From a virus, in the UHGV virus genome UHGV-0207821: DNA of 9,917 nt; one strand, given 5' to 3'. Positions 1-9,917 of this stretch are shown piece after piece. Every line of letters begins with the position of its first letter. Position 1 is the first letter of the stretch. The translations under genes were made by a program, and so were the position numbers. The notes beneath the pieces were generated by a model. It was not told the DNA's origin. It saw nothing but the letters and a program-made list of their open reading frames with translations, and did no database searches.

Positions 1-73
1 TGTGCCCCCATCGCTCTGATAGCCTGGTGTCGTCAGGTCCTTCCTGGAATTATGGCCCGTTACGGGGCGGCGG

Positions 74-616
74 TTACTCGCCTTTGTTCTGTAGCAACTT
101 CTCAGGCGCGCTTCCGGTAGTTTCCATCAGGTAATCAGCCAGTATCTGTGGCAGGTTTTCGTCAAGTCTTGCACATGCGTTACATGCTTTGGCTATTTCC
201 CTTTTTAGTTCATCCAGCATATACGGCCTTATATCGGGAAAGCGCCTTTGCATTGTGAGCGGGAGGCTGTCCATGATTGATGAAATCTGACTCGCTAGTT
301 TTGAAATCGCGTAGATGCAAAACTTTGTATCAATCACCTCGCCGCGTTCGCGCTCGTTTTTAAGTTCCTGCGCTTCCGCCTGGGCCGTCATTAATCTGAT
401 TCTTACGCGTAAAAGTTCATCATCATCAATCTCGCCTTTGTCGTTTGTAAGCTGGTTAATTGCATTGTTAACCCTATTGTCTATCACGCTGGCAACATCA
501 TAAAACGCCTCACGGCCTTTACGTTCAACGGGAGTCACTCCCCACTTGTCGAATGCTGTAGCACTTACCCGGCAGCTTTGCGCCATGGTTTTTTTGTTCA
601 TCAGGTGCGATTTCAT
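74..616 (-). CDS. Terminase small subunit, lambda gpNu1-like (possible packaging-redirecting TerS homolog)
   Basis: Translation aligns along its full length with lambda Nu1 as I recall it (e.g. RLMTAQAEAQELKNERERGEVIDTKFC...MDSLPLTMQRRFPDI vs lambda RLTRAQADAQELKNARDSAEVVETAFC...LDGLPLSVQRRFPEL). Start chosen at ATG 616 because of the upstream GGGGA Shine-Dalgarno; ATG 601 and GTG 628 are alternatives. Sits directly downstream of the cos site, as in lambda. Confidence 0.85.
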   Translation of the reverse strand: MKSHLMNKKTMAQSCRVSATAFDKWGVTPVERKGREAFYDVASVIDNRVNNAINQLTNDKGEIDDDELLRVRIRLMTAQAEAQELKNERERGEVIDTKFCIYAISKLASQISSIMDSLPLTMQRRFPDIRPYMLDELKREIAKACNACARLDENLPQILADYLMETTGSAPEKLLQNKGE

Positions 617-817
617 CAATATCCCCACTTAGTTAAGGTTTCAGGTTGGTGTGTTGGTGTTATCTTTCCCTTTTTATTCATAGAGATAGAGCGAAAAACA
701 AAACCACCACCACCAACCCGAAAAGGCTCATAAATAGCGAAAATCCGCAAGGTCGCCGCCCCGTAGCCTGCCGGATCGCCGGAAAGGACCCGCCAGCCAG
801 AACGGGCCCTAATTTCA
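617..817 (-). other. Lambda-type cos site: cosN 12-mer at 750-761 plus cosB-like repeats
   Basis: Plus-strand AGGTCGCCGCCC at 750-761 is the exact reverse complement of the lambda cohesive end GGGCGGCGACCT. The minus-strand sequence just after it (TGCGGATTTTCGCTATTTATG) closely matches lambda CGCGGGTTTTCGCTATTTATG (R3 region, from memory). AGCGAAAA repeats at 690-697 and 736-743; inverted CACCAAC-rich blocks at 644-660 and 704-719 flank an AT-rich core. Confidence 0.75.
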
Positions 818-1201
818 TCAACCAATCAGCTTATAGCGACCATCCCGTGCATTGCGACGTACACGCTCAATCTTGAGGCATAGCGCCGCATCTGGCTTTT
901 TGGGGACAGGTACGCGGCAATATTCAGAAGCTCGAGGAATATTGTTTATCCAGTCGATCACTTCACTTAAATACCAGGCTTTACGCCCTTCCGTAACCTG
1001 TACGCGTTCGGGGAACTCTCCACGAGCCTCAAGGTTTAGCAATGTGCGACGGCTAAGGGTAGTAAGTTCCATCACCTGATTCATATCAACAAGGCGTTCA
1101 CTTAAACGCATTTTGTCAGCAATAGCCTTTAATTCCTCTACTGCTGGATCCGGATACATCATTTCGGCAATTGGCTTAAGGTCATTGTAATGATTCTGCA
1201 T
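818..1201 (-). CDS. AlpA/MerR-like helix-turn-helix DNA-binding protein, function unknown
   Basis: Central motif MELTTLSRRTLLNLEARGEFPERVQVTEGRKAWYLSEVIDWINN has the AlpA/excisionase-type HTH pattern. ATG at 1201 is preceded by AGGGGGA. Lies between the gpD-like gene and cos. Confidence 0.7.
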   Translation of the reverse strand: MQNHYNDLKPIAEMMYPDPAVEELKAIADKMRLSERLVDMNQVMELTTLSRRTLLNLEARGEFPERVQVTEGRKAWYLSEVIDWINNIPRASEYCRVPVPKKPDAALCLKIERVRRNARDGRYKLIG

Positions 1202-1212
1202 TGTATCCCCCT

Positions 1213-1554
1213 TTACACACGAGCCAGCGGCTGAACAGAAATACCTGAGCCAACAAACGCGGCAACCTTTGCCGACAGTTCTCTTACAGACTCAGGCCAG
1301 TTCAGAGCATCAACATTTAAAACACCTGTCTTATAAACCTGTGCCTGTGTTTTTTTCGCTGTGTCGATTTGTACAGCGGAAACATAAACCGCTTTGCCTG
1401 CGCTCGTTCCATCCCATACCACTAGCGCACCAGTTGCATCTTCCTGCATCAGTGGCGTAAACGCAGGTATTACCCCTTTATTGGCTGAAAATATCCCCAG
1501 CGTAGTAACCAGTGCTTCAGTGCCAGACATGAGTTCAGTGTAATGAGTAGCCAT
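1213..1554 (-). CDS. Head decoration protein, lambda gpD-like
   Basis: 113 aa; conserved blocks shared with lambda gpD from memory (TPLM, VVWDGT, YKTG, WPE, AAFVGSGISV vs TPLM, VAWDGT, YKSG, WPE, TAFAGTAISIV). SD AGGGGGAG precedes ATG 1554. Confidence 0.85.
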   Translation of the reverse strand: MATHYTELMSGTEALVTTLGIFSANKGVIPAFTPLMQEDATGALVVWDGTSAGKAVYVSAVQIDTAKKTQAQVYKTGVLNVDALNWPESVRELSAKVAAFVGSGISVQPLARV

Positions 1555-1563
1555 TGCTCCCCC

Positions 1564-2610
1564 TTAGCCAATGCGAACGGTAACAAAACGATTGATGCGG
1601 GCCGGTATTGGCTGTGGTGCAGAGTGCGTTTGTACGTACTCAATAGCCGGATCACCAGGCACAATATAGTTTTTCGGTGCAAGTTCGGCTTTAGTCAGCC
1701 CCATTCGGGTTAGCTCCGGATCCTGAATACCGCCATAGGCGACAATCCCCTGAAGAGCCGTATTGCCAAGCACCATCAAATCAGGATCAAGGAAATGTTT
1801 TTCAGTTCCGTCCTCGTCGGTATAACGTCCGCTGTAAACAACAATCGCAACATCGCCCATATACCCTTTAAAACTCACCGAATCACCAAGGTCTTTAAGG
1901 GCCGTTTCCAGTTCGGAATTAGAACCACGGCGGGTATCCAGAGCCTCTTTTATCGCTCTGAATGAACGGTATTTCTTCCATACATTACCGCCCATAATGA
2001 TGATATTAGTGACGCCCTCACTAAATTCTGCGTAGCTCTCAATATCATCATTTGGATCAAAAGTTTCTTTATCCTTACCTGACCACTCAGCACCGCCAGA
2101 CTGCGTGATAATATTTTGTGGTTTTATATTCCAGTCCAGTTCATAACGTTCAATACCATCGCCCTCAATGATATTTTTCCCCGTTGTGATTGCCTGAACA
2201 GCAAGCCATTCAATACGTGCACGTATAGCTTTAGCCTGATTTACAATCGCCTGTTTAACTTTAATATTACGCGCCCCAAAAGCATTGTATTGTTCAGGTG
2301 ATACACCAGCAGGGCGCACAGCTAACTTATTTGGATCAATGCTGCTTTTCGGTTTCATATAGCCAGGGCGAATTATTTTTGATTCGTATCCCTCATCTCG
2401 TGAAACTTTACTGCCCACCATAGGAGAGCAAAACGCCGCGATCGGGATATTTGGATCGTCGATCGTATCAAGAATAATGTCTCTCGATTCAAAGATTACC
2501 GAGCGAGTGAAAAACAAACTGGTAAACAACGCATTTAATTTTTTTTGCACATCTTCAGCATTAGCCACCTGCACAAGCTGTGTAGGCGAATATAAATCAA
2601 CCATACTCAT
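1564..2610 (-). CDS. Major capsid protein, lambda gpE-like (HK97 fold)
   Basis: Long collinear similarity to lambda gpE as recalled (MSMVDLYSPTQL vs MSMYTTAQL; DTRRGSNSELETALKDLG and GDVAIVVYSG essentially identical). Start is the ATG at 2610 (MSMV...) preceded by AAAGAGGA, not the ORF-track start at 2691. Confidence 0.9.
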   Translation of the reverse strand: MSMVDLYSPTQLVQVANAEDVQKKLNALFTSLFFTRSVIFESRDIILDTIDDPNIPIAAFCSPMVGSKVSRDEGYESKIIRPGYMKPKSSIDPNKLAVRPAGVSPEQYNAFGARNIKVKQAIVNQAKAIRARIEWLAVQAITTGKNIIEGDGIERYELDWNIKPQNIITQSGGAEWSGKDKETFDPNDDIESYAEFSEGVTNIIIMGGNVWKKYRSFRAIKEALDTRRGSNSELETALKDLGDSVSFKGYMGDVAIVVYSGRYTDEDGTEKHFLDPDLMVLGNTALQGIVAYGGIQDPELTRMGLTKAELAPKNYIVPGDPAIEYVQTHSAPQPIPARINRFVTVRIG

Positions 2611-2777
2611 CCTCTTTACATTCATTACAAATAATTGTGAATATATTCTATTACCGATGTCTGCTATGCGAATACATGCAAACAAGTGCAATGTTGTATA
2701 AAATATGCCGTGACAACTTCAGTGCTGATAATTCGTGTTAATGTATTTACTTCCTTTGGTCGGGATTTATGTAGCAT

Positions 2778-2810
2778 GCCGGAAAATCTATTTTTTTCCG
2801 GCATCTTTTT
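2778..2810 (+). terminator. GC hairpin with T-run in the ssb to capsid intergenic region
   Basis: GCCGGAAAA (2778-2786) pairs with TTTTCCGGC (2794-2802), followed by ATCTTTTTGTTT. The T-run is on the plus strand, so it is a weaker fit as terminator of the minus-strand ssb operon. Confidence 0.3.
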
Positions 2811-2821
2811 GTTTGCAGAAT

Positions 2822-3244
2822 TTAAAACGGTATATTATCGCCGTACGGATCATCATTCCCCGACTGTTGTTTTGCCCTGTTCAGTGCGTCAGTGGCCTGC
2901 CCCTGCTGACCTTTTTTGCCGCCCGGTCGCGCCGTTCGCGCACTGATTACGCTGTCTGCGATAACCTGCCAGCCCCGCCGCGTTTCGCCGTTCTGGCCTG
3001 TCCACTGGCTTACCTGCATGTTACCCGCCACGCTCAGGAGTTCACCCTTGCGGTGCTTTGCCAGTGCTTCGGCCTGTCTGCCAAACGCCAGGACGGATAA
3101 CCACATCGTCGCCGTTCCGTCATCTGCCTGGCTGCACGGAAGTGGGACCGCCATACTCGCCATCGTCATTTGTGTACCCTTGCTGGTGGTCTTTAACTGC
3201 GGGTCAGCCACCAGCCGCCCGTAAGCCGCTATCTGTGCTGTCAT
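2822..3244 (-). CDS. ssb: Single-stranded DNA-binding protein (SSB), short form
   Basis: OB-fold region resembles E. coli SSB (QIAAYGRLVADPQLK vs KVILVGNLGQDPEVR; WLSVLAFGRQAEALA vs WHRVVLFGKLAEVAS). Gly/Gln-rich linker and acidic C-terminal tip DDPYGDNIPF (cf. DFDDDIPF). ATGA start/stop overlap with the upstream gene. Confidence 0.85.
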   Translation of the reverse strand: MTAQIAAYGRLVADPQLKTTSKGTQMTMASMAVPLPCSQADDGTATMWLSVLAFGRQAEALAKHRKGELLSVAGNMQVSQWTGQNGETRRGWQVIADSVISARTARPGGKKGQQGQATDALNRAKQQSGNDDPYGDNIPF

Positions 3245-3492
3245 GCTGTCTGCTCTCCGGTTTTAACGTTGATGGTTGTCACCTGTTCCGCTTCGGCAAT
3301 CTCCCGTTCTGTCAGTGTGGCAAAATTTGCCGCCGCCGTGGTCATGAATGCGCTTATCAGTTCGGGATGCGCTTTCGCGTATCCTTCTCCGGCGTGGCGG
3401 TCTATCGTTCTGATTGCCACCTTTAAGGCGTGCTCTGTCATGTCTAATGCGCGATATTTTGGTGCTGTTTTATCTCTGCTTTTTCTGGTCAT
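3241..3492 (-). CDS. Hypothetical protein
   Basis: ORF-track frame 3241-3522; start taken at internal ATG 3492 (MTRKSRDK...) so that it does not run over the iterons. Stop overlaps the ssb start (ATGA). Confidence 0.45.
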   Translation of the reverse strand: MTRKSRDKTAPKYRALDMTEHALKVAIRTIDRHAGEGYAKAHPELISAFMTTAAANFATLTEREIAEAEQVTTINVKTGEQTA

Positions 3493-3503
3493 TCCCCACC
3501 ACT

Positions 3504-3694
3504 CCCCACTTTTTCGCCTCACTTTTTAAGCTCCCCACATGATTTCCAACCTTGTTTTTTTGTGATTCTAATATGTTGTTTTTCAATGTGTTTTTTATTC
3601 CTCACTTTTGAGCCTATATACAGATTGAAAAGTGAGGGGCGCGGTTGCTTTTTGTTCAGTTCCTGCTATCCCCTCACTTTTGCGCCTCACTTTT
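3504..3694. repeat. Iteron array with AT-rich core, candidate replication origin
   Basis: CCTCACTTTT at 3517-3526, 3600-3609, 3672-3681, 3685-3694; variant CCCCACTTTT at 3504-3513; inverted copy AAAAGTGAGG at 3628-3637 forming a palindrome with the 3600 copy. T-rich stretch 3551-3599. Immediately 3' of the replication helicase gene. Confidence 0.55.
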
Positions 3695-5109
3695 TACAGT
3701 GGGCGCACATCATCACCGTCAATAGCGATAACGCCGTCTCTTTCCAGCTTGTACAGCCAGCGCCGGAAGTTTTTCATCTCATACCCCAGCTTTTTCATAT
3801 CATCGCGCAACAACGGGATAGTGCATTTATCGCCGCGCTGTGTGCGTGACCGGATACAGCCCCATAGTGCGGCGTGATTCTCCGTCTTGTTTCCGGCCTC
3901 CTCGATGCGCTCCAGTTCAACGGGTGGGCGCGGCTTATCCACAACCACCAGCGACGTGATTAACTCCTTGTCAGCGTCGGTAAAAAGCTCCACCACACGT
4001 AAATCATATGCAGCCTCTTTCAGTTCCTCCGCGTCCTTCATTTTGGTGCAGGAGATAACCAGGGCCTCACTGTCCGCGCCTTCGCGGCGGATCCGGTACT
4101 CAGCGTCCAGAGATGCACGAAATGCACTGGAACCACGCGCCCCTTTTGTTTCATCCTTGCCGGAATGGTGAACCACCAGCACCGTGGCCCCTGTGCGTCG
4201 TTTCAGTTCGTCACATCCACGGATAAACGCCCCCATATCCCGCGCGTCATTTTCATCATTACCGCCAAAGCAACGCGCCAGCGTATCCAGAATAATCATG
4301 CGTACCGGTTTACCCGTTTCCCGTTCAACCTGGCGGGATGCGATAACCATTTCATCAACATCAAACTGGGCTGCAGGAAAAATCGGGCGGTTTACCAGGT
4401 ACAGATTTTTCACCCGTTCATCATTAACGATTTCCCATGCCTTGATACGGCGGGGGACACCAATGCCACCTTCACCGACAACATACATCACCGAACCATG
4501 CGCCACCCTGCGACCTCCCCAGTGGCGACCCGTGGCAACATGACACGCCCAGGAACACGCGAGGAACGATTTATAGGAACCGCTCGCGCCGTATGTGCTG
4601 CACAATGAATTAGCCGGAATCACGCCCTTAACGACATAATCAAGCTGTGTGTCGTACCCTGCAGATCCAATGCTCATTGGTAGCGTGGTTTTTCGCTGGC
4701 TGTATTGCTCGTCAGTAAGTATTTCCCCGCGCTCTGCCTGTTCGCGGATCCGTTGCAGGTAGTCGTGCCAGTTCTCCAGCTTCTGACTGTGCATTCCCTC
4801 AGGGTAATAATTCGCATCCCGTACACCTGCCGCCGCCAGCTTTTGCCCGATGGCATTAATATTTGACGGCTTGATGTGGCCTGCCTTGTACAGTCGGACA
4901 CAATAGCGACCATCGTCGATAATTTTCAGGCCTGCCAGTTCGTCAAGCTGGCTGTCTCCCAGCCATACAGGCGGAACATTGTCGCCAGCAAGTCGCCCGT
5001 CCTGCTCCTGCCATTGTTTCGCGTGCGCCCAGGCATCACTACCCGCAAAAATAATGACTTCGGTCATTTTGTCGTAAGGCTGTTTTTTTAAGTTCGGTGC
5101 GCTTTTCAT
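3694..5109 (-). CDS. Replication initiation helicase, RepA/DnaB-like RecA-fold ATPase with C-terminal winged-helix domain
   Basis: 471 aa. Walker A-like YGASGSYKS, Walker B-like RMIILDT, then VLVVHHSGKD, typical of RepA-like (AAA_25) helicases. C-terminal LGYEMKNFRRWLYKLERDGVIAIDGDD looks winged-helix. SD AGGGG before ATG 5109; ATGA overlap with the upstream ORF. Confidence 0.8.
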   Translation of the reverse strand: MKSAPNLKKQPYDKMTEVIIFAGSDAWAHAKQWQEQDGRLAGDNVPPVWLGDSQLDELAGLKIIDDGRYCVRLYKAGHIKPSNINAIGQKLAAAGVRDANYYPEGMHSQKLENWHDYLQRIREQAERGEILTDEQYSQRKTTLPMSIGSAGYDTQLDYVVKGVIPANSLCSTYGASGSYKSFLACSWACHVATGRHWGGRRVAHGSVMYVVGEGGIGVPRRIKAWEIVNDERVKNLYLVNRPIFPAAQFDVDEMVIASRQVERETGKPVRMIILDTLARCFGGNDENDARDMGAFIRGCDELKRRTGATVLVVHHSGKDETKGARGSSAFRASLDAEYRIRREGADSEALVISCTKMKDAEELKEAAYDLRVVELFTDADKELITSLVVVDKPRPPVELERIEEAGNKTENHAALWGCIRSRTQRGDKCTIPLLRDDMKKLGYEMKNFRRWLYKLERDGVIAIDGDDVRPL

Positions 5110-5405
5110 TTCTTGCCCCTGAATCCGTTAATCATGGTTTTCAGCTTCTGGATGTTTGCCCGTGCCCTGGCGTTGCTGGTGGGCACGTTATGCGGCGCGG
5201 TCTGTACCAGAGAAAAATCACACCGGAACTGATAAACAGGCATCACGCAATCATATTCGTAACCTTCACGGCGGTAGATTACGCGCCGTTCTTCCACGCC
5301 CTTAATCATTACCGTGCCGCCGTACTGGTCGCGGTAAATATCACCGCGCGTAAATTTAGGGTGAGTGTTGCCACTGGCAGTTAAGCCAGAATATTTAAGT
5401 TTCAT
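5106..5405 (-). CDS. Hypothetical protein, translationally coupled to the replication helicase
   Basis: 99-aa ORF; SD GGAGAA upstream of ATG 5405; stop overlaps helicase start. No family recognised. Confidence 0.55.
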   Translation of the reverse strand: MKLKYSGLTASGNTHPKFTRGDIYRDQYGGTVMIKGVEERRVIYRREGYEYDCVMPVYQFRCDFSLVQTAPHNVPTSNARARANIQKLKTMINGFRGKK

Positions 5406-5410
5406 TATTT

Positions 5411-5644
5411 TTATTCTCCGGTGTGCTGTTCTTTATATCTGTCGTGCAATAGATCTATTTCTTGCAGTTCCATTATTACAGGCTCAAGAAGCGTTATTAA
5501 TGCCGTGGCAATTCTTGATTTTTGTTTGTCGCGTTCATTGTCGCCAAGTGTTTCAAGCCATATGCGCAATATTTCCAGCATGTTTTCACTGTGAGAAAGT
5601 GCAAGAAATGCGCGGTCTATTGTTTCGTGGTAAATATCACGCAT
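5411..5644 (-). CDS. Hypothetical small protein
   Basis: 77-aa ORF in the same operon, 8-nt start/stop overlap with the upstream ORF. No recognisable motif. Confidence 0.5.
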   Translation of the reverse strand: MRDIYHETIDRAFLALSHSENMLEILRIWLETLGDNERDKQKSRIATALITLLEPVIMELQEIDLLHDRYKEQHTGE

Positions 5645-5870
5645 GGCTTACATCCTCAGGAAATTTTCTTCTGTAACGCGCCTCTGCCACATATTCCGCA
5701 TAATCGGCGGCGATATTCAGTACATCAAATCCCGTTGATTTATATTCTCTCGTGGAAAGTAAGAAAAAAGCCGCTCTAATAAGCTCTGGCATTGACGAAA
5801 GCGCATCAGCCGCATCATCAGGAACGCCGGAAAATTCCTGTTTCAGGGAATTAAAACGATCATCACGCAT
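5637..5870 (-). CDS. Hypothetical protein, downstream half of a possible poly-G frameshift pair
   Basis: 77-aa ORF whose ATG (5868-5870) lies 2 nt from a G9 tract on the coding strand; the upstream ORF ends just after the tract in another frame. Confidence 0.45.
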   Translation of the reverse strand: MRDDRFNSLKQEFSGVPDDAADALSSMPELIRAAFFLLSTREYKSTGFDVLNIAADYAEYVAEARYRRKFPEDVSHA

Positions 5871-6103
5871 AACCCCCCCCCATTTTCACAATCAGCAATC
5901 AGGATGGCTTTGGCCTCATTCAGCGCCATATCCGCACTAAGTTGCATAACCGCCAGCGAATGAGGAACGAAAGCCCCGGCATATTCTGTTTCACTGGTAG
6001 CGTGCTTATGCGCCCTGTCCGCGATAACAGAAATATCAATCGGCGCATCAATCAGTGTTTTGATTGCTTCGGCGGCTGCGTCCGGACGGGTGTTATTGCA
6101 CAT
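5843..6103 (-). CDS. Hypothetical protein, upstream half of a possible poly-G frameshift pair
   Basis: 86-aa ORF; the G9 tract encodes the GGG in ...ADCENGGGLCVMIVLIP near its C-terminus. A 10-G tract would fuse it in frame to the 5637-5870 ORF. Confidence 0.45.
   Translation of the reverse strand: MCNNTRPDAAAEAIKTLIDAPIDISVIADRAHKHATSETEYAGAFVPHSLAVMQLSADMALNEAKAILIADCENGGGLCVMIVLIP
5873..5881 (-). repeat. Homopolymeric G9 tract (C9 on plus strand) at the junction of two ORFs
   Basis: Nine consecutive C on the plus strand at 5873-5881, inside one ORF and directly upstream of the next ORF's ATG. Confidence 0.9.
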
Positions 6104-6461
6104 GGTGCACCTCCTGGCGAATACGGGCGGCGAATACCATCACGCAGCCAGCCGGGGATTGCTGACGTGCTTCCTGTTCGCTGGTGGCCTCGATGTGAAT
6201 CACGCGCGGTTGTGCCGTGCTCAGGGCGATAAAACGCCAGATAAAATTGTTCTCGCATTTCTGAATAAACAGCGTGTTTTCTTCGCGCCCTTTCCATGTT
6301 GCCGAGATATAGCCCATGTCATTGAGCATCTCGCAGGCATCCACCAGCGTATCAGCGGCTACGTGTACAGTGTTTTTACCGTCAGCCATGCAATCACGGT
6401 GCACCGCCAGGAAGGTGTATATAAATTTAGGGTGAGTTTGGGTATGCTGTGTTCCAGCCAT
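6093..6461 (-). CDS. Hypothetical protein, first gene of the leftward operon
   Basis: 122 aa from ATG 6461 (MAGTQHTQTHPKF...), SD GAGGT about 8 nt upstream. Normal amino-acid composition, unlike the junk-like translation further upstream in the same frame. Confidence 0.5.
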   Translation of the reverse strand: MAGTQHTQTHPKFIYTFLAVHRDCMADGKNTVHVAADTLVDACEMLNDMGYISATWKGREENTLFIQKCENNFIWRFIALSTAQPRVIHIEATSEQEARQQSPAGCVMVFAARIRQEVHHVQ

Positions 6462-6669
6462 AATCGTTACCTCATTTAACGGTTTGGTTAGAAGCCCGGT
6501 TAGTGTTCGCGCACTGCCGGGTTTCGTCGTTTTTATGAATCGCTCATTGTGAGATACATAGCGACCCCCATGTGAGATACACATTATATTGTGGTGATAT
6601 ACATTGCAAGTGTTTTTATATCTCACTTTTGTGTATAGTGATATACACATAACAAATTGGTGATTAACT
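6462..6669. promoter_or_regulatory. Divergent regulatory region with operator-like repeats
   Basis: Four same-orientation copies of GTGA(G/T)ATACA at 6549-6558, 6572-6581, 6593-6602, 6639-6648; inverted partial TATCTCAC at 6619-6626; palindrome GTGTATA-GTGA-TATACAC at 6631-6650 just upstream of the RHH gene. Lies between divergent gene starts at 6461 and 6670. Confidence 0.55.
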
Positions 6670-6972
6670 ATGTCTGTATACAAAAATGCAAAATCGCAAA
6701 TGACAACGATCAGGGTTCCCCACGATGTTATGGAGGGCATGGAATCCGTAAAACTGGACGGCGAAAGCAACGCCGGATTCATAGTAACCGCCATGCGCGG
6801 TGAGATCGCTCGCCGGCAGGCAGAAGGAAGAGGAGAAAATCCCTTGGTTTCTTCGCTCGATGCACTGGCGCAGGTGGAAAAAATCGGTGTCAAAGCAGCC
6901 GAGGAGATCGGGCAACTCGTCACCGTCGCGCGTGAAGAACTCCAGCGGCGCAAGGCCAAAGAACCAGAGTAA
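6670..6972 (+). CDS. Ribbon-helix-helix (CopG/Arc-like) transcriptional regulator, candidate element repressor
   Basis: N-terminal MTTIRVPHDVMEGMESVKLDGESNAGFIVTAMRGEIARRQ fits the RHH strand-helix-G-x-S-x-N-helix pattern. SD GGTGA 6 nt before ATG 6670. Charged, helical composition. Confidence 0.6.
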   Translation: MSVYKNAKSQMTTIRVPHDVMEGMESVKLDGESNAGFIVTAMRGEIARRQAEGRGENPLVSSLDALAQVEKIGVKAAEEIGQLVTVAREELQRRKAKEPE

Positions 6973-7029
6973 TCACCATCAGCGCCGTGGTGTAAGGTAT
7001 TACGGCGCATTGCTATGCAGGACAACACA

Positions 7030-7203
7030 ATGACCGATAAAGAATTGACCAAAACATTATCACCGGCACGGAAAAGACGGCGCAGAAAGATAGAGCATGA
7101 ATCAGAAAGATTCGCGCCATGTGCTTTTGCTCTTGAGAAATTCCTTAAAGAGCACAGGAAAAAGCTCTCGTTGCAAACCTTGGAACGAACCAAATCTGAC
7201 TGA
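7030..7203 (+). CDS. Small basic protein, hypothetical
   Basis: 57 aa from ATG 7030 (SD AGGA 7 nt upstream); very basic (RKRRRRK). Co-oriented with the RHH gene and followed by a terminator. ATG 7015 is an alternative start. Confidence 0.4.
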   Translation: MTDKELTKTLSPARKRRRRKIEHESERFAPCAFALEKFLKEHRKKLSLQTLERTKSD

Positions 7204-7676
7204 TCACATTGCCCACCAGCCGCAAATGTGGCATTGTTGGTGATGCTCATGCGTTGGGGATAACGTGTAGCTTGTGTCGAGGGGCCACCGTAGCGGGTGG
7301 CCTTTGTTTTGCCTGTTATCCGGCAATTGTGGCGCTTCGCCACACGGTTGATATAATCCCACTGCTCAGATTCATTTTTTGCGCAGTAGGTTAATTGTTC
7401 ACAAAGGCGCTCCGGCAACGGGGCGCTTTTTGTTTTTATTAGTTTGTAGAAACCTGACTCAGAGATAATGCTCATATTCTGATTGCCGTCAGGGGGGTAA
7501 GTTAAATTTACTCCCTTTTCATCAAGCATCTGCAACGCTCTGGCGTTAATAATATTGGTTTCACTCCCGCCAATAAGGCCGGAAATAACCGGAATAATTT
7601 CAGCGAAATTTTGCAGATTCTGGTTTTCAGGCCGAACGAAGCCCCGCCCCTGTACAGGCGTATATCCAGTATTCAT
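7204..7676 (-). CDS. Possible Bro-N/antirepressor-like protein; 3' end undefined because the frame has no stop until 6093
   Basis: N-terminal ~125 aa from ATG 7676 look protein-like; NMSIISESGFYKLIKTKSAP resembles the Bro-N/antirepressor signature (weak, from memory). Beyond about 7300 the translation turns Cys/Ser-rich and runs antisense through the RHH operon and the operator region. The 7204 end is arbitrary. Confidence 0.3.
7283..7310 (+). terminator. Rho-independent terminator of the plus-strand regulator operon
   Basis: GGCCACC (7283-7289), loop GTAGCG, GGTGGCC (7296-7302), then TTTGTTTT (7303-7310). Confidence 0.55.
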
Positions 7677-7728
7677 GGTTAAATCTCTGTATTAGTGGAT
7701 GGGTGGCGGCTGTGTGCCGCCAGCCTGA

Positions 7729-7917
7729 TTAGTGAACTGCCTCGCGGCTGTCCTTCCATGCCAGAACTTCGGATAAAGACCAGCCAACGGAACGACCACC
7801 GAGTTTACGCCGTGATGGGAATTGTCCAGTCTTCTCCAGGCGATACCGACATGAGCGGCTCAGGCCTGTAAGTTGCTGACATTCTTTTTCACGTATAAAG
7901 CGATCTGTGCTTAACAC
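7729..7917 (-). CDS. alpA: AlpA-family (excisionase/Vis-like) transcriptional regulator
   Basis: LSTDRFIREKECQQLTGLSRSCRYRLEKTGQFPSRRKLGGRSVGWSLSEVLAWKD is a classic AlpA HTH. Start proposed at GTG 7917, preceded by AAAGGGGGA. The ORF-track ATG at 8025 would add a low-complexity T/N/P-rich extension. Confidence 0.7.
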   Translation of the reverse strand: MLSTDRFIREKECQQLTGLSRSCRYRLEKTGQFPSRRKLGGRSVGWSLSEVLAWKDSREAVH

Positions 7918-8285
7918 AATTCCCCCTTTGTTGTTTCTTAAAGAGTCATTGGGTGGATTATTGGGTTGGGTTGTGTCGGATTGTGTCAGGGTGTTTATGG
8001 AATGGCAAACACTGGTGGCGGTCATTTTACAGAAGTGGGGGTAGTGAGAATAAAAATCCTTTTAATTCATTATGATGTAAAGGCATAAAATTCTGTTTTT
8101 ACGCCTTTTTTACATGTTTTTAAGAGTGATTCGCCAATGTACAAAAAGCCAGTAAAACGACTGAAAATCAACTTTTTAGGGTGTCAGTCAGATGATAATC
8201 AAGTTTGTTCCAGATTGTTCGCCGTTGTTCGTCGTGGTGTCTCGTTGTTTCACGTTGTGTCCGTTCTAAAAAATCGCAAAAAAAA

Positions 8286-9533
8286 TTATATTTCTCTGGC
8301 TATTGGCAGTGTGGTTACGTTTTCGTGAGTGCCTGCCAGTATCTCTAACCGCTCTGTCCACATGTCCAGCGCATTACGTTTCGCATCGAGATAACGGGAG
8401 TGGTTATAGACTCGCTGCATCCCTGGCATCTGGTGAGCGGTGAGTTGTTCGACAATATGCGGATCCACGCCTAAATCGTTCAGCATCGTGGTAAACGTGC
8501 GCCGTATATCGTGTAGTGACCAGTGCGGATGGTTTAATTTTTTGTGCATGAATCTGCCGTATTGCGACACACTGGCTTCCTGTTTCAGTTCCCCGAGTAA
8601 TAGCCCTGTGTGTCTGTTCTGCTCCACCAGCTGCGTGACGAACGGTAAAATGCTTTCCGGTATTGGCCTGAATATGGCGACCTTCGTTTTGCTGTGCTCT
8701 TTCGGTACTGTCCAGAGCATTTCCTTAAAATCCCACTCCCTGATCTCCGATAATCTCAGTTCTCCGGTTCGGCAGCCGAACACAATCAGGAGGCGGATTA
8801 GTGCGCTGTAGTAGGGCGGGAATATTTTTTTATCCAGCGCCTGTAATAATTCGCCAAGTTCTTTGTTGCTCAGCACGCGTTCGCTTATGCCTGGTTTTTT
8901 GCCAACGTCCACCACGTTAAGATCATCCAGAACGTTACTGACTGCGTAGCGACGTTTACGGCAGAACTTAAGCGCCTGTTTACACGCCTGCATCATGTGA
9001 CCAGACGTTACAGGGGATTTTTTGCGTATCCGGTCAAAACAGGCCAGCCAGTGACGTAACTCGCATTTATCCAGTGGCATATTGCCAATATGCTGTATGA
9101 CGTGATTATTCAGGCGGCTTTTCAGGCATACGTAATCGACACGGTTTTCCTTTACGTGCATTTCCAGCCAGTAGCTGATCGCATCACCCACCGTTACCGG
9201 CTTTAGTGCTTCCTGTATGGAGTAATTAAGCTCATGGCGTGGATTTTTTCCTTCTGCCAGCCATGCGCGACACTGTGCCGCTTTTTCCCTGGCTGCTTTC
9301 AGGCTCAGATCAGGATAATTTCCCAGCTTCAGGCGTTCCGGTGATACCTGGCGTCCAGCTCCTGCTCTGTAGGTGAAATACCAGGTTAACAAGCCGCTGG
9401 TGGAATGCCTGACGCTCAGGTTTCCACCGTCATTAAGAAATGTGGTTTTTGGGGCTGGTGTGCCGTTGATTTTTCTTAGCTGTGTATCGCTCAGTTTGTT
9501 AAGTGCTCTGCTCATAATTTTGAATCCGGTCAT
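8286..9533 (-). CDS. int: Tyrosine site-specific integrase, P4-family type
   Basis: N-terminal LSDTQLRKI...DGGNLSVRHS...LLTWYFTYR typical of P4-family integrases; C-terminal catalytic region with HDIRRTF and VYNHSRY (tyrosine nucleophile). ATG at 9533; the ORF track starts at GTG 9536, and ATG 9515 is also possible. Confidence 0.9.
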   Translation of the reverse strand: MTGFKIMSRALNKLSDTQLRKINGTPAPKTTFLNDGGNLSVRHSTSGLLTWYFTYRAGAGRQVSPERLKLGNYPDLSLKAAREKAAQCRAWLAEGKNPRHELNYSIQEALKPVTVGDAISYWLEMHVKENRVDYVCLKSRLNNHVIQHIGNMPLDKCELRHWLACFDRIRKKSPVTSGHMMQACKQALKFCRKRRYAVSNVLDDLNVVDVGKKPGISERVLSNKELGELLQALDKKIFPPYYSALIRLLIVFGCRTGELRLSEIREWDFKEMLWTVPKEHSKTKVAIFRPIPESILPFVTQLVEQNRHTGLLLGELKQEASVSQYGRFMHKKLNHPHWSLHDIRRTFTTMLNDLGVDPHIVEQLTAHQMPGMQRVYNHSRYLDAKRNALDMWTERLEILAGTHENVTTLPIAREI

Positions 9534-9538
9534 CACAA

Positions 9539-9562
9539 TTAACTACACCATTAACTACACCG
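9539..9562. repeat. Perfect 12-bp tandem repeat (x2) abutting the integrase start
   Basis: TTAACTACACC(A) at 9539-9550 and TTAACTACACC(G) at 9551-9562. Confidence 0.8.
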
Positions 9563-9586
9563 ATCATTGCACAAGGGGGTACAACG

Positions 9587-9606
9587 TGGAACAAGTTGGA
9601 ACAAGA
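9587..9606. repeat. 10-bp tandem repeat TGGAACAAG(T/A) x2 in the integrase upstream region
   Basis: TGGAACAAGT at 9587-9596 and TGGAACAAGA at 9597-9606, one helical turn apart. Confidence 0.7.
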
Positions 9607-9720
9607 AAAATTGCAATGAGCTTAAAAATCAAAAACATAATGAACAACGTGGCACATTATGAAACAGCAAAAAACACTAATTTATAAAATCACGATATTA
9701 ATAATGTAACTTATATTTTC

Positions 9721-9773
9721 GTGAAATCTGTCACTGAAGAAAATTGGCAACTAAAGGTTAAAACCGTTATAAC
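9721..9773 (+). promoter_or_regulatory. Candidate sigma70 promoter with CRP-like half-sites for the downstream sRNA
   Basis: GTGA-N6-TCAC at 9721-9734 (CRP core TGTGA-N6-TCACA); -35-like TTGGCA 9744-9749; 18-bp spacer; -10-like TATAAC 9768-9773; predicted start near 9780. Confidence 0.4.
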
Positions 9774-9779
9774 ACAGTC

Positions 9780-9873
9780 ACCGGCGCAGAGGAGACAATG
9801 CCGGATTTAAGACGCGGATGCACTGCTGTGTGTACTGTAGAGTCTGGCGGATGTCGACAGACTCTATTTTTTT
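9780..9873 (+). ncRNA. mcaS: About 94-nt sRNA with four GGA motifs, McaS(IsrA)-like
   Basis: Promoter-to-terminator unit with no ORF. 5' stem-loop CCGGC...GCCGG; GGA motifs in single-stranded or loop contexts (GAGGAGA, CCGGATT, GCGGATG twice); terminal hairpin plus U7. Sequence matches my recollection of E. coli McaS, a CsrA-binding sRNA; not verifiable here. Confidence 0.55.
9838..9873 (+). terminator. Rho-independent terminator of the sRNA
   Basis: TAGAGTCTG (9838-9846) pairs with CAGACTCTA (9858-9866); 11-nt loop containing GGA; followed by TTTTTTT (9867-9873). Confidence 0.7.
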
Positions 9874-9917
9874 ATGCAGTTTTAACTTTGCAGATAGCCG
9901 CATTCTCGCCGGAATTG

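Follow-up and report, generated by a model that had tools for sequence, protein, structure and literature searches.

A junction beside the mcaS small RNA gene of Escherichia coli is very probably the attR end of an EcCICFT073-family PICI

Junction and attachment core

Analysis of a 9,917-nucleotide stretch of DNA from a virus genome (UHGV-0207821; hereafter the window) indicated with high confidence that its right-hand end is the attR junction of an EcCICFT073-family phage-inducible chromosomal island (PICI), a phage satellite of the EcCIEC2733.1 type, integrated at a known site between the divergent genes smrA and mcaS. On this reading, which draws on Pfam and PHROG matches, tblastn and the relatives L003 and L001, positions 1–9689 hold the right-hand ~9.7 kb of the island, with all genes on the minus strand. 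L001 is identical to the window at the mcaS end, and L003 is the closest full-length relative (98.7%). The left end of the element, attL adjoining smrA, lies outside the window and was defined in these two close relatives.

An earlier note, made from the letters alone, had placed an element boundary within positions 9563–9917, on the promoter side of an sRNA gene. When the region 9400–9917 was compared by megablast with 5,426 complete E. coli genomes, thousands of genomes matched only from query base 291, which is window position 9690, to the end of the query, and the whole query was matched in only 68 of the 5,426. The segment 9690–9917 is wholly identical to K-12. Three-way alignments of attB, attL and attR delimited the att core TCACGATATTAATAATGT at 9690–9707, so that comparison with the empty site located the boundary inside the interval proposed, with the element lying between the divergent genes smrA and mcaS. 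The first part of the core, TCACGATATT (9690–9699), is a perfect 10-bp direct repeat, the second copy of which is found at the far end of the element beside smrA. K-12 holds a single copy of TCACGATATT and occupied genomes hold two, and K-12 homology stops there from each side. The repeat extends to 16 bp (to 9705) with one mismatch, reading TCACGATATTtATAAT at attL and TCACGATATTaATAAT at attR and attB. In K-12 (locus L002), the intergenic region between divergent smrA and mcaS that holds the chromosomal attachment site is 227 bp long; in the occupied genomes L001 and L003, an element of ~10.5 kb is situated between the two genes. Measured start to start, the core copies lie 10,704 bp apart in L001; the figure for L003 is 10,442 bp.

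The core TCACGATATTAATAATGT is the exact reverse complement of ACATTATTAATATCGTGA, the published core of EcCIEC2733.1, an island of 10.5 kb in E. coli assembly CXXR01000010.1 (90531–101020) whose att gene is given as 'lysR-smrA' (Fillol-Salom 2018, Table S1, PMC6092414). The 'lysR' of that paper is abgR. As compared by its Table S1 entry, the likeness of EcCIEC2733.1 to the present element lies in the identical core, the lysR (abgR)-smrA site and a length of 10.5 kb against 10.4–10.7 kb in L003 and L001; relatives at the site are mosaic, with either a RepA helicase or a primase module and with varying cargo.

In the mechanism that we propose, Int would recombine an attP core, TCACGATATT(T/A)ATAAT, with the identical chromosomal core, and the attP predicted across the joined ends reads ...TTATAAAATCACGATATT[T/A]ATAATTAAATGCG.... 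Strand exchange would occur within the 10 perfectly repeated bases TCACGATATT, a crossover position assigned because attL retains the element's variant immediately to the right of the repeat. As a result, int and its arm, with the tandem ATTAACTACACC, would face mcaS, and the packaging end would face smrA. The mcaS gene itself belongs to the resident chromosome: the island displaces only DNA upstream of -81 to -90, and everything from the CRP-like site through the -35 and -10 hexamers to the RNA and its terminator is left intact. Counted from the McaS 5' end given by Rfam, the core spans -90 to -73, with the CRP-like site 21 bp to the right of the insertion point. When the attR arm, the core and the attL arm were joined into the predicted attP junction, no match was found in IMG/VR viral or JGI metagenome contigs, a negative that says little either way about excised or packaged copies of the island.

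The sRNA gene and its promoter region

McaS is a well studied sRNA. An Rfam cmscan of the window returned a single match above the gathering score, McaS/IsrA (RF00115), at 9780–9875 on the plus strand; the match scored 118.4 bits against a cut-off of 42 (E = 3e-22) and was full length (1–96 of 96). The gene (mcaS, also isrA or IS061) is 100% identical to that of K-12. It contains four GGA motifs, starting at 9791, 9803, 9816 and 9849, and its minimum free energy fold (z = -2.3), in line with the Rfam structure, consists of three hairpins, the final one being the terminator hairpin at 9837–9867, followed by a T (U) run to 9873. The intact McaS-like unit described in the earlier note, with its GGA motifs, terminator and CRP-like site, is thus McaS itself, and its distance from the integrase start, estimated there at about 250 bp, was measured as 264 bp from the int ATG to the McaS 5' end, with int and mcaS forming a divergent pair in the occupied state. 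McaS is known as an antagonist of CsrA (PMC8151843, PMC6061853).

The genomic context of the gene is that of the McaS family, between abgR and smrA (ydaL). The 3' end of abgR, which encodes a LysR-family regulator, lies on the minus strand at 9882–9917, as judged from the sequence and from the RefSeq annotation of the identical locus in L001 (16483–17391). Its stop codon (9882–9884) is 7 bp downstream of the RNA, and the two genes are convergent. On the other side of mcaS, the first chromosomal gene beyond the island is smrA. Compared with K-12, the McaS sequence, the promoter region and the abgR-convergent context are the same; only the upstream DNA differs, being PICI DNA from -90 leftward. 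In the RefSeq records, no RNA gene is annotated at the mcaS position.

The resident mcaS promoter region (9708–9779, plus strand) is identical to K-12. A predicted CRP-like site, CGTGAaatctgTCACT, at 9720–9735 agrees with 8 of 10 consensus positions. Since three such 8/10 matches were seen in the window against 4.3 expected, the match taken alone is not above chance; what lends the site weight is where it lies, the fact that it is perfectly conserved, and the published assignment of mcaS to the cAMP-CRP regulon, on which the gene depends (PMC3634460). A putative -35 element, TTGGCA (9744–9749), and a putative -10 element, TATAAC (9768–9773), were read by eye. A strict consensus scan of 9450–9917 for promoters and terminators called neither these hexamers nor the terminator, because the -10 element ends in C and the terminator stem is bulged, so the empty result reflects a strict filter and has no bearing on absence. 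The position of the CRP-like site, -52.5 relative to the Rfam 5' end, is a non-canonical spacing for CRP, and the promoter layout as read from the sequence is tentative.

In about 1,455 genomes, a cluster of MFS, HlyD and AraC-family genes separates smrA and mcaS (AraC-type chromosomes). When these were compared with K-12-type chromosomes, identity began at the stop codon of the AraC gene, corresponding to window position 9707, and ran through the CRP-like site and the hexamers. The CRP-like site is perfectly conserved between the two types, and the differences to the right of 9707 are few and confined to the spacer between the -35 and -10 elements. The 18-bp counterpart of the core agrees at only 12 positions in AraC-type chromosomes, and all DNA to its left is unrelated. 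The att core aligns with the last codons of the AraC-family gene of other E. coli lineages; the intergenic stretch that holds it is a vestige of the 3' end of such a gene. Position 9707, from which K-12-type and AraC-type chromosomes are conserved, lies right of the crossover region, and the functional mcaS promoter is therefore probably wholly outside the element.

Possible consequences of the insertion for mcaS and smrA

The earlier note had raised the possibility that the element affects the regulation of the sRNA. A quarter of E. coli genomes have unrelated DNA upstream of the gene, which tolerates it; this argues that the island does not disrupt the mcaS promoter, and we infer that mcaS regulation is largely unaffected. 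The pattern somewhat disfavours an effect of the insertion on McaS regulation. Quantitative effects could nevertheless arise through the divergent int promoter, through protein-bound arm DNA or through the separation of mcaS from smrA.

The alternative that survives best accepts the same arrangement and adds functional consequences to it: McaS levels would change, with effects on CsrA titration, biofilm and motility, or transcription would read through into smrA, or CRP would couple int to cAMP. In its favour, just 21 bp separate the core from the CRP-like site, the RNA start is 81–90 bp away, and int and mcaS have been turned into a divergent pair 264 bp apart. Furthermore, every PICI gene is directed toward smrA, and between the last of them and smrA the same strand yielded no consensus terminator, which would make read-through into smrA possible. 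McaS levels are also reported to vary among strains with identical promoters (PMC8151843), indicating that context can matter. Against these points, K-12-type and AraC-type chromosomes share the DNA between 9707 and the RNA start apart from the few spacer differences, while the DNA to its left is unrelated, and the ~1,455 genomes with other upstream DNA have kept mcaS. In addition, a related PICI at the roxA site has no adjoining CRP site, so CRP coupling is not a feature of the family. On balance, we regard functional consequences as unlikely.

The stronger form of this idea, in which integration would measurably rewire the host through McaS output, and hence CsrA activity, PGA- and curli-dependent biofilm and motility, together with induction-driven read-through into smrA, appears more unlikely still. 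If it were true, ETEC, STEC and commensal lineages would owe to the island a phenotype that does not depend on its cargo. As a weaker corollary, a lineage would be open to the island only after deletion of the AraC/efflux cluster beside mcaS, given that just 12 of 18 core positions match in the AraC-type chromosome.

Integrase and attachment arms

The int gene (8286–9515, minus strand) was assigned by Pfam to a tyrosine integrase. Its 409-aa product contains an N-terminal Arm-DNA-bind_3 domain, a core-binding Phage_int_M domain and a catalytic Phage_integrase domain; PF13356 scored 66 bits and PF00589 62 bits, and PF22022 was under its cut-off. The protein is 100% identical to Int of L001, 99.8% identical to that of L003 and 87.0% identical to that of EcCICFT073, and the closest integrases among phage records are at most 50% identical. 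Divergence from EcCICFT073 Int is unevenly distributed along the protein: residues 96–205, the central core-binding part, are 24.5% divergent, compared with 7.4% for the arm-binding domain and 9.3% for the catalytic domain.

Between the int start and the core lies the attR arm (9516–9689), element-specific DNA that is missing from empty-site genomes and presumably holds the int promoter as well as binding sites for the recombinase and accessory proteins. Homology with the int-proximal arm of roxA-site EcCICFT073-type elements runs to 9689 and is lost from 9690. A repeat search revealed a tandem of two copies of ATTAACTACACC at 9538–9561 (plus strand), which are putative arm-type Int binding sites, and the ATTAACTACACC-ATTAACTACACC tandem is found also in the attL arm in direct orientation. 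Short repeats on the plus strand within 9581–9652, namely ACAACGTGG (9581 and 9644) and GGAACAAG (9588 and 9598), are putative accessory or arm sites. Motifs akin to these short repeats were observed in the attL arm and in the int-alpA intergenic region at 8223–8261.

The 26-nt arm repeat is also common to both ends of EcCICFT073, despite the different core of that island, GGACATATTT; the reverse complement of GGACATATTT is present at the junction of a roxA-site relative, L004. EcCICFT073 differs from the present element in its core, in its chromosomal site and in the core-binding domain of Int. The shared arm repeat, the different cores and the divergence of the core-binding domain together led us to infer that the arm-type sites, being shared, would be read by the conserved N-terminal domain of Int, and that the central domain would switch core specificity.

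Gene content and family assignment

The window carries a set of minus-strand genes ordered as in EcCICFT073, the prototype Gram-negative PICI, which occupies the ycfD/roxA-phoQ site. From the integrase inward, Pfam and PHROG identified alpA (7729–7917), DUF4222 (5106–5405), a RepA/AAA_25 helicase (3694–5109), SSB (2822–3244), a lambda-E-like major capsid protein (1564–2604), a gpD-like head decoration protein (1213–1554), a second AlpA-like HTH gene (818–1201) and TerS (74–616). Between alpA and the DUF4222 gene are a long ORF of 527 aa (6093–7676) and small ORFs (5411–6103). The long ORF was considered as an unannotated novelty and rejected as such, for it corresponds to c1487, the 'icd-like' gene (428 aa) listed for EcCICFT073. 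Amino-acid identity to EcCICFT073 is 87% for Int, 97% for AlpA, 92% for DUF4222, 58% for icd-like c1487, 69% for SSB, 55% for the capsid protein and 54% for the decoration protein. The window element differs from EcCICFT073 in that a RepA/AAA_25 helicase replaces the full primase, and in having a TerS homolog and the second AlpA-like gene in the packaging region.

Directly 3' of the helicase gene, a repeat search found a cluster of at least six CCTCACTTTT-type iterons in both orientations (3504–3694), abutting the helicase stop codon. Replication origins of PICIs have been placed 3' of the rep gene (Fillol-Salom 2018, PMC6092414), and the cluster is a putative PICI origin.

The core-to-core size of 10.4–10.7 kb (L003, L001) falls within the range of about 10–15 kb expected of a PICI, and the order int, alpA, icd-like, DUF4222 and RepA helicase follows EcCICFT073. 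The attachment site likewise appears to be PICI-specific, since the core is that of the catalogued lysR-smrA site, and the occupied sites examined (L001, L003 and L007) were all of PICI type. Portal, tail, TerL and lysis genes were neither detected in Pfam and PHROG scans nor annotated in the relatives. Homologs of phage structural and packaging genes were limited to the capsid-E-like, gpD-like and TerS genes, as in EcCICFT073 (c1499, c1500). Of the set that characterizes cf-PICIs (portal, protease, connectors, TerL and TerS, with capsid genes), only the major capsid, decoration and TerS homologs were found, and the element is not of that kind. When the element was compared by megablast with 50,697 phage records, only a 79-bp match was obtained, indicating that it is not a catalogued phage.

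Rejected readings of the boundary

The sRNA gene might be cargo of the element, with the true boundary to the right of mcaS; nothing except the proximity of the integrase speaks for this, and the empty-site comparison refutes it, since mcaS and its promoter are 100% identical in thousands of element-free genomes, homology starts at 9690 and mcaS lies to the right of the direct repeat; we give the idea practically no credence.

It is equally improbable that the element is a P4-like satellite or island with a tRNA or tmRNA target, the real att site being marked by a degraded tRNA fragment. P4-type elements typically integrate at the 3' end of tRNA or tmRNA genes, though this does not strictly define them. 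The window element has in common with the P4 satellite and P4-type integrases a tyrosine integrase with Arm-DNA-bind_3, that is, the broad P4/CP4-57-type domain architecture, and the character of a small helper-dependent element. It differs in having no tRNA target and no P4 hallmark genes: neither Rfam nor ARAGORN gave a tRNA or tmRNA match in the window, the core corresponds in alignment to the final codons of an AraC-family gene, and the hallmarks alpha primase-helicase, sid, psu and delta had no Pfam or PHROG match in the ORFs scanned, the gene content being PICI-like. The degraded-tRNA target is contradicted by the absent matches and by the AraC-gene alignment of the core. PICIs and P4 have been treated as distinct (Fillol-Salom 2018, PMC6092414).

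The earlier note had also pointed to the tRNA-less end of the element as a departure from the norm. The observation itself stands, as ARAGORN found no tRNA or tmRNA in the whole window; the departure does not, because non-tRNA sites are usual for E. coli PICIs. Those catalogued are at ycfD-phoQ, tqsA, yejM-luxR, cspD-clpS, lysR-smrA, yicC-dinD and frmR-thiM, and one further entry is given only as an IS110 transposase (Fillol-Salom 2018, Table S1, PMC6092414). As E. coli PICIs are catalogued at protein-coding or intergenic sites, the absence of a tRNA is the rule for the family and not an anomaly.

Distribution in E. coli

Among complete E. coli genomes, an intact K-12-type site was present in ~3,850 and a site split into two places in 81. 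The int-arm-core-mcaS junction itself occurs in about 68 of the 5,426 genomes and is at least 99.3% identical among the 60 listed of these 68. The isolates that carry it came from human, pig, poultry, goat, yak, crow and food sources and include ETEC and STEC. Islands at the mcaS site are mosaic: in L001 a primase takes the place of the window's RepA helicase, and L007 carries a different PICI variant at the same site, with lytic transglycosylase, NUDIX, PerC and ProQ/FinO genes as cargo.

Discussion

Our data place the right-hand end of the window at a PICI attachment site for which the island family, the integrase type, the exact att core and the site were already published in 2018. The sole increment is a small new point, that the 'lysR-smrA' site lies in the divergent control region of mcaS and smrA. 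The name isrA had no matches in the supplements of Fillol-Salom 2018 (PMC6092414), and neither mcaS nor isrA was mentioned in the text examined. A literature search on mcaS with integrase, or on abgR, smrA or ydaL with satellite or PICI, found no paper noting the adjacency. The adjacency has probably gone unremarked because the supplements are silent on isrA and the RefSeq records carry no RNA feature.

If the insertion altered McaS or smrA, a phage satellite would be changing a global post-transcriptional regulator through position alone. The conservation pattern upstream of the RNA argues against a large effect of this kind, and the significance of the finding beyond annotation is likely to be little. 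What it provides is a more precise map, in which the 'lysR-smrA' PICI site is situated 81–90 bp upstream of mcaS, with 21 bp between it and the CRP-like site.

Integrase specificity and the attachment site

The integrases of the PICIs at the mcaS site (Int, window 8286-9515) and at the roxA site, where the prototype EcCICFT073 (L006) resides, are 87% identical, with differences amounting to 24.5% in the central core-binding domain (aa 96-205) and 7-9% elsewhere. Despite this divergence of the core-binding domain, the arm repeats are common to both groups. The 26-nt repeat AATTAACTACACCATTAACTACACCG was found in both arms of the window island and of EcCICFT073 alike (window 9537-9562; 5667-5692 in L001, an occupied genome; 1384-1409 and 12603-12628 in L006). 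From these comparisons it looks as if site specificity was switched between mcaS-site and roxA-site PICIs via one Int domain. Table S1 of Fillol-Salom 2018 (PMC6092414) gives the reverse complement of AATTAACTACACCATTAACTACACCG under 'att site core' for EcCIDI14; this entry probably represents the arm repeat instead of the actual crossover core. Repeats with a 10-bp period, of the CGTTGTT/ACAACG and GGAACAA types, were detected in the int-alpA intergenic region (window 8223-8261); the attR arm (9571-9673) holds them in reverse orientation, and related motifs are present in the attL arm. These repeats, whose enrichment is modest, may be bound by AlpA, an excisionase or Int.

An MFS/HlyD/AraC gene cluster separates smrA from mcaS in about 1,455 E. 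coli genomes. Since the last codons of the AraC-family gene (8221-9036 in L005, a chromosome of this type; ...MHDYAITRQMI-stop) align with the K-12-type attB core (window 9690-9707), the PICI site lies inside a 36-bp vestige of a deleted AraC-family gene (2485-2520 in the empty site of K-12, L002). Core identity in AraC-type genomes is only 12/18, and the right flank is of K-12 type in all 60 of the 60 occupied sites listed.

Modular gene content of the islands

The replication module (window 3694-5109; L001 10293-12098; L006 5742-7496) encodes a 471-aa RepA/AAA_25 helicase in the window and in its closest full-length relative, L003, versus a primase-family protein of about 590 aa in L001 and EcCICFT073; the two proteins have only the first ~131 aa in common, at 61% identity. 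Directly adjoining the RepA-helicase gene at its 3' end (window 3504-3694) are at least six iterons of the CCTCACTTTT type that run in either orientation, and this cluster is a likely island replication origin. A different iteron, GGTGAACAGT, occupies the equivalent place in L001, which has the primase module instead. The helicase and primase forms show that the replication module has been swapped, with modular mosaicism among islands at one att site. The smrA-mcaS site of E. coli ETEC1732 (L007 14137-28156) is filled by a different PICI variant carrying lytic transglycosylase, DUF2213, NUDIX, PerC, ProQ/FinO and AntA/AntB-type genes. On the attL side, beyond the window, the last island gene is separated from attL by about 630 bp without coding sequence (L001 5597-6223), a candidate cos or packaging site region; no consensus terminator was found there on the smrA-directed strand.

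Annotation of the islands and of mcaS

A 527-aa ORF on the minus strand (window 6093-7676; see also L003 10095-10804) carries no Pfam domain other than an Icd-like motif near its C terminus (NCBIfam NF033153, aa 478-521). The EcCICFT073 counterpart (L006 3267-4553, plus strand; 428 aa, 58% identity), entered as c1487 'icd-like' (Fillol-Salom 2018, PMC6092414), is likewise an open frame. At this locus, RefSeq/PGAP annotates no more than the final ~66 codons and places a 'YlcI/YnfO family protein' inside the ORF on the opposite strand; of these two annotations, one is probably in error. As an RNA feature, mcaS is annotated in none of the RefSeq records of L001, L002 and L003 at positions equivalent to window 9780-9875, despite an Rfam score of 118 bits. 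This missing annotation conceals the adjacency of the PICI site and the sRNA gene.
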